Origin: Candidatus Levyibacteriota bacterium
GTDB lineage: Bacteria > Patescibacteriota > Microgenomatia > Levybacterales > UBA12049
Length of the DNA stretch: 64,000 bases
Direction: 5' to 3'
Assembly (NCBI GenBank): GCA_049519175.1
Contig: JBEKQZ010000001.1
Location: forward strand, 107,311-171,310
A program made the translations under genes and the position numbers. The notes beneath the pieces were generated by a model. The model saw only the letters and a list, made by a program, of their open reading frames with translations. It was not told the origin of the DNA and searched no databases. Positions 3,985 through 11,704 of the stretch are shown here, one piece after another (within the stretch, counting starts at the first letter, position 1; the number at the start of each line of letters is the position of its first letter).

Positions 3985-4055
3985 CGGGGTGTAGTTTACC
4001 GGTAGAATGCGCGCATGGGGTGCGTGTGGACTGAGTTCAATTCTCAGCACCCCGA
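3985..4055 (+). tRNA. tRNA-Pro (anticodon GGG), about 71 nt without encoded CCA
   Basis: Hand-folded: acceptor CGGGGTG/CACCCCG (7 bp) and T-arm CTGAG-TTCAATT-CTCAG. Anticodon stem CGCGC/GCGTG with loop ATGGGGT (U33, anticodon GGG, G37). D-loop contains GG. The D-stem is weak (GU/AU pairs). Confidence 0.6.
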
Positions 4056-4118
4056 CAAGACAATATTGACCTATATTGATATCTTGAAATCGTTCGAATA
4101 AATTACTAAAATGGCTTT

Positions 4119-5770: not shown

Positions 5771-7012
5771 ATGGCAGATCAAGACTTAATACAACTCGAA
5801 AAGAAACTCTTAGAAAGAGAAGAAAAATTAGAGCAGGAAAGACAAAAGCTTGCGGAATTAAAAGATAAATATCAGGAAAAGCTGGAAAAAGTTTCCGCTT
5901 TAACCCCCGAACAGGCCAAAAAAGAAATGTTTGACCAAGTTGAGCTAAACGAAGCTAAAGCTGTGGCCAAAATCATCAAAGAGCGGGAAGACGAAGCCAA
6001 AGCCACCGCCGATAAAAAGGCGCAGGAAATTTTAATGGACAGCATGCGTTTTGGCGCGGTCAATTATATTGCCGAATACACAGTTTCAATTGTCAAAATC
6101 CCCGACGAAGATATTAAAGGCCGAATTATTGGTAAAGAAGGTAGAAATATCCGCGCTTTTGAACAGGCGACCGGTGTGGATGTTGATTTAGACGAAGAAG
6201 GAGTAATTCGACTTTCGTCTTTTGACCAGGTGCGAAGAGAAGTTGCCAGACGTGCTTTGGAAAAATTAATCAAAGACACCAGGGTGCAGCCCTTCCGGAT
6301 TGAAGAATTGGTCGCGGAAACCAAAAAAGAAGTCGAAAAAATCATGTTTGAAGAGGGAGAAAAGTTAACTCACGAAGCCGGAGTTTTTAATCTCTCTAAA
6401 GAAATTATCGAAGTTTTGGGTCGATTTAAATTTAGAACTTCCTACGGACAAAACCTGATTATCCACACTTTGGAAGATGTAAAAATCGGCGTGCACATTG
6501 CCGAAGAAGTCGGAGCCAATGTTAACATCGTTCGGCTTGGTTGTCTGTTCCACGACATCGGAAAAGTGCTGGAAGGCGAAGGCAGCCACGTCACTTTAGG
6601 AGTAGAATTCTTAAAAAAGCACGGTATTCCTGATTTAATTGTTAATTGTGTTGCCGAACATCATGAAGACAAACCGTTCTCGTCAATGGAATCGGTAATT
6701 GTGCATATTGCCGACCAGATTTCGGGAGCCAGACCGGGAGCACGCTATGAAGACGTGGAAAATTATGGCAAGCGGTTGACGGAAATGGAAGAAATTGCCA
6801 AAAAATATGAAGGCGTCGAAGACGCATACGCTTTTGAAGCCGGCAGAGAATTAAGAGTGATTATCAATCCTGGCAAACTGGATGATGCACAAACGACAGT
6901 GGTTGCCAATAAAATCAGAGATGAAGTCAGTAAATCGCAGGCAGTGGCGGGAGAAATAAAAGTTACCGCCATTCGGGAATTCCGCGCCGTTGCTACCGAA
7001 TTCGCTTCCTAA
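5771..7012 (+). CDS. rny: ribonuclease Y (KH + HD domain endoribonuclease); no N-terminal TM helix apparent
   Basis: N-terminal coiled coil, KH domain (IIGKEGRNIRAFEQATGVDVDLDEE), HD domain (HDIGKV...AEHHED). 413 aa. Confidence 0.85.
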   Translation: MADQDLIQLEKKLLEREEKLEQERQKLAELKDKYQEKLEKVSALTPEQAKKEMFDQVELNEAKAVAKIIKEREDEAKATADKKAQEILMDSMRFGAVNYIAEYTVSIVKIPDEDIKGRIIGKEGRNIRAFEQATGVDVDLDEEGVIRLSSFDQVRREVARRALEKLIKDTRVQPFRIEELVAETKKEVEKIMFEEGEKLTHEAGVFNLSKEIIEVLGRFKFRTSYGQNLIIHTLEDVKIGVHIAEEVGANVNIVRLGCLFHDIGKVLEGEGSHVTLGVEFLKKHGIPDLIVNCVAEHHEDKPFSSMESVIVHIADQISGARPGARYEDVENYGKRLTEMEEIAKKYEGVEDAYAFEAGRELRVIINPGKLDDAQTTVVANKIRDEVSKSQAVAGEIKVTAIREFRAVATEFAS

Positions 7013-7399: not shown

Positions 7400-8428
7400 A
7401 TGACTTTAAGACTAAGATCGGTTTTTCTAATCGTTGTCGGACTAATGCTTGCGTGGTTTCTTTATGTGGAACGCGCGATTTTAACCCCGTTTGTTTTAGC
7501 CGCCATTTTTGCTTATATTTTTAATCCAGTTGTTAATTTCTTTTCCCGTCATTTAAAACTACCTAGAGCTCTTTCCGTTCTCATTATTTATTTAGCCATT
7601 GTCTTTATTGTCGCCATGGCAGGGCTAGCTTTTTCCGGCCGCATTATGGAAGAATCGATGGAGTTAAGACAGGAAGTAACCACGATTACAAAAACCGCTG
7701 AGCACCAAGTGAACACTTTACCGGATTGGCTAAGGCCGACGGTTAACGATACTCTGGTCAGTTTTGAAAAAGGGGCTGTTATTTCTCTTCCTTCGGTGGT
7801 ATCTTTCGTACCAAAAGCCTTTTCGCGAATTTTAAGTTTTATCGTTTTCTTATTTGCCGCTTTTTATTTTCTTAAGGAAGGCCGGAGTATGTTTGATAAG
7901 CTCTTGAATTTTGTTCCTAATGATTACAAAGTGGAAGTGGATATTCTCATCCGGAAAATCAATTCTGTTTTAAGTAGTTATTTAAGAGGCCAAATCTTTT
8001 TAGTCTTTTTTGTCGCGCTGGCTTTATTTATTGTTTTAACCATTTTGGGAGTAAAGTTTGCTTTAATTCTGGCGGTTTTTTCCGGCTTTGCCGAAATTGT
8101 CCCCATCATCGGTCCGATTGTGGCGGCGTCGGTCGCAGCACTGGCGACGTATCTTAGTGGTGGTGCAAGTTTTGGTTTAGCGCCGTTGCAGGGAGCGTTA
8201 GCGGTCGTTGTTGTTTACGCACTCATCCGTCAAATTCAAGACTATCTGGTCAATCCATACGTAATGGGAAAAATTACCAAGCTCCATCCGTTAGTAATTT
8301 TGTTTGCGGTTATTGCCGGAGAACATATCGGTGGAATCGTTGGTTTAATTTTGGCGGTGCCAATTGTAGGCGTGATAAAGATTATTTTTGAATACTCTTT
8401 GGATAAAATTAATCAAGAATCCCGCTAA
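7400..8428 (+). CDS. AI-2E family transporter (PerM/UPF0118 permease)
   Basis: 342 aa, 7-8 TM helices, conserved AI-2E C-terminal block (IPIIGPIVAASVAALATYLSGG...LILAVPIVGVIKIIFEY). Confidence 0.8.
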   Translation: MTLRLRSVFLIVVGLMLAWFLYVERAILTPFVLAAIFAYIFNPVVNFFSRHLKLPRALSVLIIYLAIVFIVAMAGLAFSGRIMEESMELRQEVTTITKTAEHQVNTLPDWLRPTVNDTLVSFEKGAVISLPSVVSFVPKAFSRILSFIVFLFAAFYFLKEGRSMFDKLLNFVPNDYKVEVDILIRKINSVLSSYLRGQIFLVFFVALALFIVLTILGVKFALILAVFSGFAEIVPIIGPIVAASVAALATYLSGGASFGLAPLQGALAVVVVYALIRQIQDYLVNPYVMGKITKLHPLVILFAVIAGEHIGGIVGLILAVPIVGVIKIIFEYSLDKINQESR

Positions 8429-8433
8429 AAAGT

Positions 8434-8780
8434 CCGCGGATGTAGTAAGCCAGATTCTGTTTAGATTGCCATCTATCTCAATACGATATTTGGTCGTTTT
8501 GGTCCGATATGCTCGGACTGCCCTTTTTTCGATGCTCCTTTAAAGCAAAGTTGTAACGCATCAGTCAAAGGTTGCAGCGGGTAGGATTGCCCGTTTCACT
8601 CCCACTCGTCTCTGTTGCTCTCAGATTCTGTTAATTCAGAATCTGTTCGAAGACCTTAACGTGGGTGAGATCTTCGAAACTAGCTATTACTAGTCGGAAC
8701 TTATGTTCCACCCCCGGCTTTATACCTGTCTGGACTTTCCTCTCGCCCCATCGGCGAGTAGCAATTCTGCATCCGCAGAC
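8434..8780 (-). ncRNA. rnpB: RNase P RNA (bacterial type), about 347 nt
   Basis: The minus strand reads CTGCGGATGCAGAATTGCTACTCGCCGATGGGGCGAGAGGAAAGTCCAGACAGG... (CR-I GGAAAGTCC). It has GGGAGTGAAACGGGC (the GTGAAA-GG conserved region) and ends ...AAACAGAATCTGGCTTACTACATCCGCGGAC (P4 3' strand ACAGAAnCCGGCTTA). The P1 helix is formed by GCGGATG / CATCCGC about 340 nt apart. There is an internal perfect hairpin CAGATTCTG-TTAATT-CAGAATCTG. The region is GC-richer than its flanks and has no ORF. Confidence 0.75.
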
Positions 8781-8818
8781 GGTGATATTCTAGCAAAAAA
8801 GGGGTCAAAAGTCACTTT

Positions 8819-11704
8819 TTAGGCGTGGCATAGCATTTTATACTCGCAGTTTTTGCAAAAAAGTGAACCGCTGCAGCTAAAATCACTCTTTTCAATTTCC
8901 TTTACTTTTTCCAAAATCAACTCTTTGGCTTCTTTAAGCTGTTCTTTGCTTCTGGCGGTTGTTAGTTTTAAATCTTTTTCCAGATAATATAAAGACAATA
9001 AAATATCTTCAGGTGCTTTGTCTAAAATCTGATCTTTTACCTCATTGGCAGCTAAAGCATAAAAAGTAAGCTGTAAATTTGTTTCTAATTCTTTTTGCGT
9101 TGGAATATTATCGCCGGTTTTGTAATCGATAATTTCAATTTTATTTTCACCTAGCTTATCAATCCGGTCGATTCTTCCGGCAATTTTAACTTTGTCTAAA
9201 TAAAAATTAAACGGGTATTCCAATGCGACAGGCAAGTTATTTTTATTAAAGTTTTTAGTTAAATAATCGCTGATAATTTTGGTGGCTTTATCTAAAGCTT
9301 TTTTCGCGTGAGTTTTGCTGGAGTAACCGTCGTTTAGCCAAACCTCATTAATGATTTTCGAAACCTCGGCGATTTTTACTTTATTGCCGCTTTGCCAAGC
9401 CTGGTAAAAATTCCTAAGCGCCGCGTGGACGCTGGTGCCGAAACTTTGCGCGGATGTTTGAATAGTGGGGATTTTAAGAATATATTTTAATTTGTAATGC
9501 AGCGGGCAGATCTCAAAAGTTTGTAGTTGTGAGTAAGAAAGATAATTGACTGCGGTGGTAGCGCTTGGCGCTTCTTTGACTTTTTTGCTTCCTTTATTAG
9601 TCCACTCGAGTAGCGATAACTGTACGTCTTCCGGTTCGCTTTTTTGCAAGACTTTTTCAACCTCTTTCTCTTTTAGGGTCTCATAAACAAAGGGCGAAAT
9701 TTTTCTTTCCCTTTTGCCCTCGCCGTAAAAATTCGCGGCCGTTAAGCATAATCTGTCTCTGGCTCGGGTCATTCCGACATAAAAAAGACGGCGTTCTTCT
9801 TCCAGATGAAAATCTCCGCTGGGTAAGATTTCTTTAATTAACTTTTGCGGAATGGGAATTTTTTCATGTCTTTCGCGTGTCGGAAATCTTTGCGCCACCA
9901 GATTAACTAAAAAGACGACCGGGAATTCCAGTCCTTTACTGGAGTGAATAGTTAAGATATTTACGGCATTATTTTCCGACCAGTCGAAATCCGCCGCCAA
10001 AGGGCTTTCTCCCATTTGCATTGAGAGGTCAATCCAATCGACTACGTCAAAAACCGAAGCGGTTTGATGGTCGGTTTCATAAGTTTTTAATTTATCAAAA
10101 AATTTAGCGATATTCTTGGCAATTTTTTCATCCGTTACGGTTTTATAATCAATAATTTTCTGAATCAACCCACAGTCTTGCAGAAAATAATACAGAATTT
10201 GACCGGCAGTTTCCTTATGGATTAATCCCAAATGCCTTTTTAGCATCTTGTAGATATTGGTAATTCTTTCTTTGGCTTTTCCATTAAATAAAATCTCATC
10301 ATTTTTCCCCAAAGTCTCGAAAAGAGAATAATTTTTCCTTTTAGCTAAATTTAATAAGGTGGCAATCTCGATACTATCGAGTCCAAAAATCGACATATTT
10401 AAAACCCTGTACAAACTGGCGGAGTCTTCAAAATTGTAAAGCACTTTTAAGTAAGCGATTAAGTCTTTAATTTCTTCCTGATGAAATAATCTTCCCGGGC
10501 CCAAAAACTGGTAAGGGATTCTGGCTCTTTCGAGTGCTCTACCAAAACTCTCCGCGTGGTCGTTGGCTCTGACTAAAATGGCAAAATCCCGATAGGCATA
10601 TTTCTTACTCCCCTGCAAAAGTTCTATTTGCTCTACGACGGCTTCCGCTTCGTCTTCAACCCGCGGTTTATAAAGGAAAGACAGTTTTTCGCCTTTAATT
10701 TTTCTGACGGAAATAAGTTTCTTATTCAATTTCTCTTTAACCTCCAAGCGGTCCGGATTATTGTGCTGAATTAACTGATACGAGCTATCTAGAATTTCTT
10801 TGGTCGATCGATAATTATTAATTAAGGTCACAATTTTGACTTTTGGAAATCTTTTTCTGAATTGAATAATGTTGGAGATGGAGCTGCCGCGGAATCGGTA
10901 AATTGATTGGTCGTCGTCTCCGACAACAGTAATGTTCTTCTTTTCTCCGGAAAGCAAGATAGCCAATTCGTTTTGGGCAAAGTTGGTGTCTTGGAATTCG
11001 TCGACTAAAATATATTCAAATTGCTGTTGATAATTCTTGAGAACATTTTTTCTGGTTCGGAAAAGTTTAAGCGTATTAGAAATTAAATCGGAGAAGTCCA
11101 TAACATCCTCTTTAGCTTTTAACTGTTCATAAGTTTTATAAGCGTTGGCTAGCTCAAGATATTTTTTATACTCATCCTTATTTTTTTTCAGCTCTTTGTC
11201 ACTTTGGACAAATTGCAAATACTCGCTTGGTGAGACGTCCTCGTCTTTTAACCTGGAAAAATGCTGAATTAACGCCTCTAAAAATTTATTGGGATTGCCA
11301 AGCGGACGGAAATAATTTAAATCTAGTTGGAAAAGATGCTGTCTTAAAAATAAAATACTCTCCGCCTCGGTCATTAATTTATAAGCCGAACTTAGCCCGA
11401 TATGAATACTCTCATTTCTTAAAATGCGGTCGCAAAAAGAATGAAAAGTGGAAATCCACATTTGCGTATAACCGTAAGGCATGGTTTGATCAACTCTTTC
11501 TTCCATCTCCTTGGCGGCTTTTTCGGTAAAAGTCAGCGCTAGGATTTGCGAAGGTTCAACTTTTTTTTGCAAGACCAGATATTTAATTCTTTCGGTGATA
11601 ACAGTGGTTTTGCCGGTTCCGGCGCCGGCGATAATCAAAAGCGGTCCTCTGCCATATCTAACCGCTTGTTTTTGATGTAAATCCAGTTTAATCCCTGCCT
11701 TCAT
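8819..11704 (-). CDS. ATP-dependent SF1 UvrD/PcrA-type DNA helicase fused to a C-terminal PD-(D/E)XK (RecB/Cas4-like, Cys-cluster) nuclease
   Basis: Walker A AGAGTGKTT, UvrD motifs (DEFQDTN, VGDDDQSIYRFRG, YRST, VTLTTIHSSKGLEF, VGMTRAR). C-terminal nuclease motifs ...RIDRIDK...IIDYKTG... and a terminal Cys cluster CSGSLFCKNCEYKMLCHA. 961 aa. Confidence 0.85.
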   Translation of the reverse strand: MKAGIKLDLHQKQAVRYGRGPLLIIAGAGTGKTTVITERIKYLVLQKKVEPSQILALTFTEKAAKEMEERVDQTMPYGYTQMWISTFHSFCDRILRNESIHIGLSSAYKLMTEAESILFLRQHLFQLDLNYFRPLGNPNKFLEALIQHFSRLKDEDVSPSEYLQFVQSDKELKKNKDEYKKYLELANAYKTYEQLKAKEDVMDFSDLISNTLKLFRTRKNVLKNYQQQFEYILVDEFQDTNFAQNELAILLSGEKKNITVVGDDDQSIYRFRGSSISNIIQFRKRFPKVKIVTLINNYRSTKEILDSSYQLIQHNNPDRLEVKEKLNKKLISVRKIKGEKLSFLYKPRVEDEAEAVVEQIELLQGSKKYAYRDFAILVRANDHAESFGRALERARIPYQFLGPGRLFHQEEIKDLIAYLKVLYNFEDSASLYRVLNMSIFGLDSIEIATLLNLAKRKNYSLFETLGKNDEILFNGKAKERITNIYKMLKRHLGLIHKETAGQILYYFLQDCGLIQKIIDYKTVTDEKIAKNIAKFFDKLKTYETDHQTASVFDVVDWIDLSMQMGESPLAADFDWSENNAVNILTIHSSKGLEFPVVFLVNLVAQRFPTRERHEKIPIPQKLIKEILPSGDFHLEEERRLFYVGMTRARDRLCLTAANFYGEGKRERKISPFVYETLKEKEVEKVLQKSEPEDVQLSLLEWTNKGSKKVKEAPSATTAVNYLSYSQLQTFEICPLHYKLKYILKIPTIQTSAQSFGTSVHAALRNFYQAWQSGNKVKIAEVSKIINEVWLNDGYSSKTHAKKALDKATKIISDYLTKNFNKNNLPVALEYPFNFYLDKVKIAGRIDRIDKLGENKIEIIDYKTGDNIPTQKELETNLQLTFYALAANEVKDQILDKAPEDILLSLYYLEKDLKLTTARSKEQLKEAKELILEKVKEIEKSDFSCSGSLFCKNCEYKMLCHA

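Follow-up and report, generated by a model that had tools for sequence, protein, structure and literature searches.

Comparative evidence for a pseudoknot at the P12 site of a divergent RNase P RNA from Candidatus Levybacteria

RNase P RNA is the ribozyme that trims tRNA precursors, and its gene, rnpB, is essential. The helices P6, P16 and P17 are hallmarks of the type A RNA, and type C RNA keeps P12. To our knowledge, the P12 hairpin is near-universal: in all three domains of life, nearly every RNase P RNA retains it. We know of no reported pairing of the leftover linker with another loop in the RNAs of Mycoplasma fermentans or of the archaeal type T, from which the P12 hairpin has also been lost. 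Both are cited as P12-less RNase P RNAs in PMC8172020 (type T from Thermoproteaceae), but they belong to lineages unrelated to the one studied here and have other backbones, namely type B in M. fermentans and a near-complete loss of the S-domain in type T. The same source reports RNase P RNAs under the Rfam thresholds in 10 of 35 complete CPR genomes (Lui, Nielsen and Arkin 2021, PMC8172020). According to its description, many CPR RNase P RNAs are without P13, P14, P16 and P17, and two Microgenomatia genomes are without P12, P13, P14, P18 and the UGG motif; the loss of P12 was termed highly unusual. Other papers on CPR or Microgenomatia RNase P RNA were not found in the full-text literature search. 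Type C RNA (Thermomicrobium roseum, Sphaerobacter) is described as combining P6, P16 and P17 with one P10.1 and with P15.2 (PMC7191817), and type B RNA has an L12-P10.1 tetraloop-receptor contact, which is named in PMC11571812.

The DNA analysed here, referred to as the window, is a stretch of 64 kb from a genome of Candidatus Levybacteria (CPR/Patescibacteria, Microgenomatia). An intergenic gap of 390 bp lies between an AI-2E transporter gene (7400-8428, plus strand) and a UvrD/PD-(D/E)XK helicase-nuclease gene (8819-11704, minus strand), and the only open reading frames overlapping it were two mechanical ones of 51 and 42 aa. The first-pass annotation had described this gap as GC-richer than its surroundings and had placed an RNase P RNA on its minus strand, and both statements held. 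The G+C content of the RNA was 0.473, whereas the whole window had 0.401, the transporter gene 0.404 and the helicase gene 0.378. RF00010, the Rfam family of bacterial RNase P class A, aligned from end to end with 8431-8777 of the minus strand, in agreement with the proposed identity, strand, ends and context, and the three conserved blocks that had been read from the minus strand were all found (GAGGAAAGTCCAGAC at 8742-8728, GGGAGTGAAACGGGC at 8603-8589 and ACAGAATCTGGCTTA at 8460-8446). The genes around rnpB are recA, recX, the RNase Y gene, the AI-2E transporter gene, the helicase-nuclease gene, rmuC and tsaD. The gap is predicted with high confidence to encode the functional rnpB of this genome, with the structure described below. 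The gene and its putative promoter are located as follows.

8432-8780, minus strand: gene of the RNase P RNA (rnpB), about 349 nt when measured between the outermost bases of P1, based on the RF00010 match and covariation.
8787-8815, minus strand: promoter-like site, GTGACT, a 17-nt spacer and TAGAAT with an upstream TG (extended -10), ending 7 nt before P1.

The match covered positions 1-367 of the RF00010 model with a score of 50.6 bits and an E-value of 1.1e-14 (local search) or 1.3e-12 (whole window). RF00010 scored higher than the remaining RNase P clan families, and with Rfam and reporting by E-value 8431-8777 (minus strand) was the sole RNase P-like match in the window. The gathering score of RF00010 is 100 bits, and the window RNA reached half of this value. 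With the Rfam gathering thresholds only a tRNA-Pro at 3985-4056 was reported for the whole window and no RNase P RNA; 50.6 bits is below the gathering score, and therefore a default Rfam scan shows nothing for rnpB. The minus-strand hit that the first-pass annotation had expected from the Rfam models was thus obtained by E-value, while at the default threshold the result was empty (50.6 versus 100 bits). A composite pattern of CR-I, CR-II and CR-III gave one match in the window and none in 100 shuffles, and CR-I to CR-V were all present, in order, and invariant across 23 homologues. By sequence statistics the gene is real, yet it is missed by default annotation. Where default Rfam annotation shows no rnpB in this CPR lineage, the essential gene may wrongly be taken as lost or the genome as incomplete; a model specific to the clade, derived from the alignment of 23 sequences, would cure the missed annotation.

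The adjoining helicase was 100% identical to a protein recorded as Candidatus Levyibacteriota, and many of its homologues carry the names Levybacteria or Patescibacteria. The order helicase, RNA, AI-2E transporter was kept where the helicases of the loci were 66-85% identical; these loci had a gap of about 400 nt adjoining the AI-2E gene, with one small gene inserted in some. An RNase P RNA adjoining the helicase was present in none of the loci L004-L083, which were obtained by a generic UvrD motif search and contain mostly unrelated helicases; this marks the gene order as specific to Levybacteria. The TGnTAnAAT box occurred at an equal distance from P1 in the six loci with the shared gene order, and most of the 23 homologues in the alignment have it there as well. 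The 3' strand of P1 was directly followed by a U run (8431-8427, minus strand), and such a run recurs there throughout the family. The gene would be driven by its own extended -10 promoter just past the stop codon of the helicase gene, and the RNA would end at P1 and the U run. A BLAST search of GenBank phages with the RNA gave no match.

The 23 homologues of the alignment came from the Candidatus Levybacteria gene-order loci and from metagenome contigs. The contigs were scanned with a pattern of CR-I, 100-130 nt, CR-II, 5-35 nt and CR-III, which yielded 17 further members with an equal spacing of 9 nt between CR-II and CR-III. Because the search pattern fixed CR-I, CR-II and CR-III, the metagenome homologues are a biased sample of the family. 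The structure of the window RNA was built by hand and projected onto the alignment, whereupon 89.1% of the cells were paired, compared with 76.1% in column shuffles, and none of 500 shuffles reached the observed value. Compensatory double changes were present in 80 of the 108 pairs. In slid controls, in which the partners were moved by 1-3 columns, only 36-46% were paired. RNAalifold without a supplied structure recovered P1, P2, P3, P8, P9, the two added hairpins X and Y, P15 and P16. At the level of comparative sequence analysis, covariation established the identity of the RNA, its secondary structure and its pseudoknots.

The low Rfam score would also be expected of a decaying, non-functional rnpB copy in a genome with a working RNase P, RNA-based or protein-only, encoded elsewhere, and the view is limited to 64 kb of the genome. 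Both the protein subunit gene and a second rnpB copy were judged within this 64-kb window only; a search of it with the RNR motif matched only stop-interrupted frames, and no rnpA was found in it. Decay is nevertheless extremely unlikely. The architecture, the compensatory changes and the promoter box are kept in 23 divergent genomes, the core from CR-I to CR-V is invariant, and complete CPR genomes, as described in PMC8172020, carry only such diverged copies.

The following elements were assigned in the RNA, all read on the minus strand.

8770-8780, minus strand: 5' strand of P1, GUCUGCGGAUG, 11 pairs with 8432-8442; RNAalifold also predicts this helix.
8432-8442, minus strand: 3' strand of P1, CAUCCGCGGAC, followed by the U run 8431-8427.
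8761-8767, minus strand: 5' strand of P2, pairing with 8463-8469; inner 5 pairs 93.6% paired, double changes in 5 of 5.
8742-8758, minus strand: P3 hairpin, CUCGCC-GAUGG-GGCGAG; double changes in 6 of 6 pairs, 93.8% of cells paired.
8729-8742, minus strand: CR-I, GAGGAAAGUCCAGA, family-invariant, holding the 5' strand of P4 (8737-8729) with U8734 bulged.
8717-8722, minus strand: 5' strand of P6, UAAAGC in J5/7, whose pseudoknot partner is GCUUUA (8541-8546) of the P17 loop.
8695-8710, minus strand: P8 hairpin, UGGAAC-AUAA-GUUCCG; 100% of cells paired, double changes in 5 of 6 pairs.
8682-8694, minus strand: P9 hairpin, ACUA-GUAA-UAG(C)U, with a GNRA loop; double changes in 4 of 4 pairs, 98.8% of cells paired.
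8522-8571, minus strand: P15 (CCUU/AAGG), P16 (GAUGC/GCAUC) and P17 (CUU/AAG).
8483-8518, minus strand: two hairpins at the P18 position, GUCCGA-GCAUA-UCGGAC (8518-8502) and ACGA-CCAAAUA-UCGU (8497-8483).
8470-8482, minus strand: CR-IV / J18-2, UUGAGAUAGAUG, with AGAnAGAU family-invariant; aligns with the RF00010 consensus AGAugAAUG.
8445-8460, minus strand: CR-V, ACAGAAUCUGGCUUAC, holding the 3' strand of P4 (8454-8447).

The closure of P1 by GCGGATG (8776-8770) and CATCCGC (8442-8436) had been noticed before and is present, but the helix is longer than had been stated, with 11 pairs. Compensatory versions of P1 occur in other members, for example GUUCUUUGGAAG/CUUCCAAAGAAC. P4 consists of 8 pairs and a bulged U and is invariant within the family. 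Covariation of the P4 strands among related genomes had been named as a test that could refute the assignment; the 3 distal pairs were found to covary without exception across 72 RNase P RNAs, the window RNA having the AGA/UCU variant. P6 had double changes in 5 of 6 pairs with 84.5% of cells paired, and J5/7 is 9 nt long. The P8 loop is GNRA-like and is GUAA or GCAA in relatives. Double changes occurred in all pairs of P15 (96.7% paired) and of P16 (100% paired), and P17 was weak (59.5%). Both stems at the P18 position covary and neither loop is GNRA; both hairpins are missing from L097, L106, L107, L184 and L193, and their homology to P18 is unproven. The covariation of P4 and P6, together with the findings on the fold, assigns the catalytic domain (P4, P6, P15-P17) to type A.

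The specificity domain, as judged from the same alignment, diverges from type A in that P12-P14 are lost, two hairpins are gained and a pseudoknot is in use. The proposal of a reduced type A architecture therefore holds for the catalytic domain and not for the specificity domain. The gene itself is ordinary as a housekeeping RNA, and its interest lies in this divergent domain, which contains the following elements.

8646-8678, minus strand: extra hairpin X, located after the 5' strand of P10 and before that of P11; its stem of 10 bp (UUCGAAGAUC/GGUCUUCGAA) carries a loop of 13 nt.
8622-8645, minus strand: extra hairpin Y, CAGAUUCUG-AAUUAA-CAGAAUCUG; double changes in 8 of 9 pairs, 99.5% of cells paired, in agreement with RNAalifold.
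8585-8620, minus strand: P11 region, GAGC (8620-8617) with GC (8590-8589) and UC (8586-8585).
8661-8665, minus strand: 5' strand of the pseudoknot, CCCAC in the loop of hairpin X, pairing with 8601-8605.
8601-8605, minus strand: 3' strand of the pseudoknot, GUGGG, the sole nucleotides remaining at the P12 site between CR-II and CR-III.

In the RF00010 alignment there was an insertion of 77 nt after P7, and the segments of P12, P13 and P14 were cut from 28, 19 and 23 positions to 5, 4 and 4. The P12 hairpin, P13 and P14 are absent from the window RNA, in which CR-III leads straight into the 3' strand of P11. The distance from ACAGAGA to GUGAAA was only 9 nt (CGAGUGGGA) in the window RNA and in 22 homologues. 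P11 was 100% paired with double changes at two inner pairs, and it encloses only CR-II (AACAGAGACGA, 8616-8606), GUGGG and CR-III (AGUGAAACGG, 8600-8591, minus strand). P10 is formed by AG (8681-8680) and CU (8584-8583) on the minus strand and was 95.7% paired. Because P10 has only 2 bp (2 of 23 cells mismatched), the placement of hairpins X and Y between P10 and P11 is weakly based. The register of GAGC/GC-AA-UC for P11 with AG/CU for P10 fits the variants and was preferred to one in which P10 is GA/UC and P11 contains tandem G-A/A-A mismatches.

Hairpin X had double changes in 9 of 10 pairs and 89% of cells paired, and RNAalifold agreed. Hairpin Y, the second added hairpin, has a 9-bp stem and a nearly invariant loop, UGAAUURACA. 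It is the 'internal perfect hairpin' of the first-pass annotation, CAGATTCTG/CAGAATCTG at 8645-8622; the hairpin is present as claimed, but the loop given as TTAATT is the plus-strand reading and is AATTAA on the RNA strand. No partner for the loop of hairpin Y was found: GUUAA in the X loop fits only in the window RNA and L001 by eye, and J16/17 was inconsistent. Hairpins X and Y are placed as is P10.1 of type B and type C (PMC7191817), which refers to an equivalent position only and does not imply homology.

That X and Y are displaced homologues of P12-P14 or an alignment artefact, instead of insertions at the P10.1 position, could be suspected from the 2 bp of P10 and from the poor covariance-model alignment in this region. 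This explanation can hardly be credited. Hairpins X and Y lie 5' of the 5' strand of P11 and of CR-II, while P12-P14 lie 3' of CR-II; the covarying P11 (GAGC/GC..UC) encloses only CR-II, GUGGG and CR-III; and relatives carry X and Y together with a normal P12 hairpin. Insertion of both hairpins at the P10.1 position is the preferred reading.

The pairing of CCCAC with GUGGG was analysed in 23 sequences. A total of 99.1% of the cells were paired, with double changes in 5 of 5 pairs, and no match to this was obtained in 500 shuffles; the slid controls gave 21-64%. There were 13 compensated cells and one mismatch in 115. Seven compensated states were present, CUCAC/GUGAG, CCUAC/GUAGG, CCUAU/AUAGG, UCUAC/GUAGA, CCCAU/AUGGG, CCCGC/GCGGG and UCCAC/GUGGG. 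A rival local hairpin of GUGGG with CCUAC (8586-8582) showed no compensatory change, and every variant breaks it. A sixth pair of the pseudoknot (A with A, U or G) was unsupported, with 16 of 23 cells unpaired. The pseudoknot CCCAC/GUGGG is established on this comparative evidence, and no description of it was found in the full-text literature searched.

An ordinary, shortened type A RNase P RNA, in which the complementarity of CCCAC and GUGGG is structurally meaningless, would explain that RF00010 was the top-scoring family and that P6, P15, P16 and P17 are present. It is, however, very unlikely. P12, P13 and P14 are absent rather than shortened, two covarying hairpins are inserted at a position not used by type A, and the alternative local pairing of GUGGG is unsupported. 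The covariation of the pseudoknot at all five pairs, with 13 compensated cells against one mismatch in 115, largely refutes this explanation and argues for a structural role of the pairing.

The window RNA shares with type A (RF00010; E. coli M1 RNA, Thermotoga maritima) CR-I to CR-V, P1-P5, P7-P11 and P15, and also P6, P16, P17, the GNRA-like loops L8 and L9 and the overall length. In contrast to type A, it is without the P12 hairpin, P13, P14 and the GGU of L15, and it has gained X and Y between P10 and P11, together with a pseudoknot where P12 would be. The P12-less RNAs of Microgenomatia in PMC8172020, compared by description, match it in the class of the organism, in sub-threshold Rfam scores and in the absence of P12, P13, P14 and UGG/GGU. 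On this comparison by description the window RNA and those RNAs are very probably one family, and as P12-less Microgenomatia RNAs were reported in 2021, the window gene belongs to a reported phenomenon. P18 is missing in the description of PMC8172020, whereas the window RNA has two hairpins at this position and five relatives have none. The added hairpins or the pseudoknot are not mentioned in the accessible text of PMC8172020. The structural account, which covers the P10.1-position hairpins, the P12-site pseudoknot and the relatives with kissing loops, appears to be new within the literature searched.

Likened by description, the window RNA resembles type C in that both are mosaics, in which P6, P16 and P17 of type A occur with a helix placed like P10.1. 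These type C elements are present, but the hairpins at 8518-8483 are not assignable to P15.2, type C being known here by description. Unlike type C, the window RNA has two hairpins at that position and a loop-to-strand pseudoknot, and its P12 hairpin is missing. With type B (RF00011; Bacillus subtilis) it shares the absence of P13 and P14 and a helix at the P10.1 position that contacts the P12 element. The type B contact on the one hand, and the pseudoknot of the window RNA or the loop-loop pairing of its relatives on the other, join two equivalent parts. In contrast to type B, the window RNA is without P5.1 and P15.1, has P6, P16 and P17, and uses Watson-Crick pairing and not tetraloop docking.

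The RNA would cut the 5' leaders of pre-tRNAs in the ordinary bacterial manner, with an active site formed by the P4 pseudoknot, CR-I and CR-V and with the tRNA elbow read by the strands of CR-II and CR-III. Besides this catalysis, we infer a bracing role for the pseudoknot, which presumably holds the tRNA-elbow-binding module in place of P12-P14. It thereby offers testable mutants on how the tRNA-recognition module of CR-II and CR-III is held. The GGU motif of L15 pairs with the 3'-CCA end of tRNA. The 3' side of L15 in the window RNA is GAAAA; there is no GGU in this RNA and none is conserved in the family, and CCA is not encoded by the only tRNA gene of the window. Because L15 is without GGU, pairing of the RNA with the 3'-CCA end is not expected and probably does not occur here. 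An L15 without GGU and a tRNA without CCA agree with two thirds of the CPR RNase P RNAs as described in PMC8172020.

Further loci were reached through a Na/Ca-exchanger gene that adjoins the RNA and whose protein has homologues named Candidatus Woykebacteria. The relatives, from metagenome matches and from these loci, have hairpins X and Y and in addition a P12 hairpin of 22-33 nt. In the Woykebacteria-type RNAs there is complementarity over 5 bp between RCCGA of the X loop and UCGGY of the P12 loop. Six loci had the state ACCGA/UCGGU; GCCGA/UCGGC was present in L189 and in the three identical copies L226-L228; and GUCGA/UCGAU was seen once. These data, from 9 distinct sequences in which just 2 positions show compensatory change, point to a loop-loop contact between X and P12 in the Woykebacteria-type relatives. 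Because the X loop appears to pair with the P12 loop in relatives that keep P12, the pseudoknot of Levybacteria is most likely a remnant of this contact after loss of the P12 stem, a direction of evolutionary change that we infer. The RNA would then be a natural example of a ribozyme that keeps a tertiary brace and loses the helix bearing it, with the loop-loop contact of the relatives as the presumed intermediate. With moderate confidence, the Levybacteria-type RNAs are considered a distinct, undescribed class in which P12 has collapsed into a 5-bp pseudoknot with a P10.1-like loop, derived from a kissing contact. If this is true, it provides a stepwise view of the re-bracing of the tRNA-elbow-binding module, and a CPR branch joins the lineages of type B (Bacillota) and type C (Chloroflexota) in the use of a P10.1-P12 contact.

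Two of the relatives, L092 and L110, are outside the simple series from kissing contact to pseudoknot. Both have the P4 variant CCAGAC, as in the window RNA, and a P12 hairpin, but no clear loop-loop complementarity. L092 carries GNRA loops on both X and P12.

Hairpin Y, the second of the two extra hairpins between P10 and P11 of the RNase P RNA (window 8622-8645, minus strand), carries the loop UGAAUURACA, which was nearly invariant across the Levybacteria-type RNAs (P12-less, with a pseudoknot) and the Woykebacteria-type relatives, which keep the P12 hairpin. In contrast to the loop, the stem covaried freely. A search for a pairing partner of the hairpin Y loop found none, and the loop may make a tertiary contact or bind a protein. 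The 9-mer CAGAAUCUG was present twice in the window RNA, once on the 3' side of the hairpin Y stem (8622-8630, minus strand) and once in the P4 3' strand (8451-8459, minus strand). The repeat looks coincidental rather than like an alternative pairing, because at the loci L003 and L206 the Y copy varied in step with its own partner and the P4 copy remained constant.

The RNase P RNAs of the Woykebacteria-type loci L087, L089, L189 and L222-L230 contained both extra hairpins plus the P12 hairpin. The complementarity of the first-hairpin loop, RCCGA, to the P12 loop, UCGGY, suggests a kissing-loop contact between the two. At these loci the RNase P RNA was followed downstream by a Na/Ca-exchanger gene and then by an AI-2E transporter gene; both lineages therefore keep rnpB close to the AI-2E gene.

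Lineage-specific inserted hairpins were present in the family members L202, L110, L001, L097, L141, L174 and L201. Two of these RNAs have the insertion after CR-III, at the would-be P13 position:

L202:12376-12786, minus strand, RNase P RNA with inserted hairpin
L110:2365-2763, minus strand, RNase P RNA with inserted hairpin

Other insertions are found within P16/P17 or ahead of the 3' strand of P4. Several inserted hairpins contained a CCCCGAUUNAAUCGGGG-like sequence, and a small inserted hairpin is recurrent among family members.

A pattern scan designed to find CPR relatives also matched 15 IMG/VR contigs of 13-332 kb that are catalogued as viral (L207-L221). In the seven of these that were scanned, RF00010 scores of 136-191 bits exceeded the Rfam threshold, and the RNase P RNA lay among tRNA genes, whose number per locus ranged from a few to over 30. 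Examples are:

L209:2201-2509, minus strand, RNase P RNA
L211:1102-1400, minus strand, RNase P RNA
L221:10778-11091, minus strand, RNase P RNA (contig also with tmRNA)

Many of these RNAs combined a 16-nt mini-P12 with an altered CR-I, GAGGAAGUUCGG or GAGGAAAGUCGG, whose 3' strand was changed to match. The RNAs may be phage-encoded, or the contigs may be host DNA binned as viral. BLAST gave no match to them in GenBank phages, and none of the papers listed by the literature search connected RNase P RNA with large phages.

On the plus strand, window 8500-8520 and the T-run after it scored as a terminator-like site. Here the first P18-region hairpin, read as its complement, is followed by CCCTTTTTTC, and the site begins roughly 70 nt past the AI-2E gene stop (8428). 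The convergent AI-2E transcript might end at this site, inside rnpB, or the site may have arisen by chance.

Two other window genes were considered:

3985-4056, plus strand, tRNA-Pro (GGG), the sole tRNA gene in 64 kb
5771-7012, plus strand, short RNase Y homologue of 413 aa

The tRNA-Pro 3' end reads ...CACCCCGA-CAAG; CCA is therefore not encoded. The usual N-terminal part of the RNase Y homologue seems to be missing, because its RNase_Y_N profile match begins at profile position 105 of 201.
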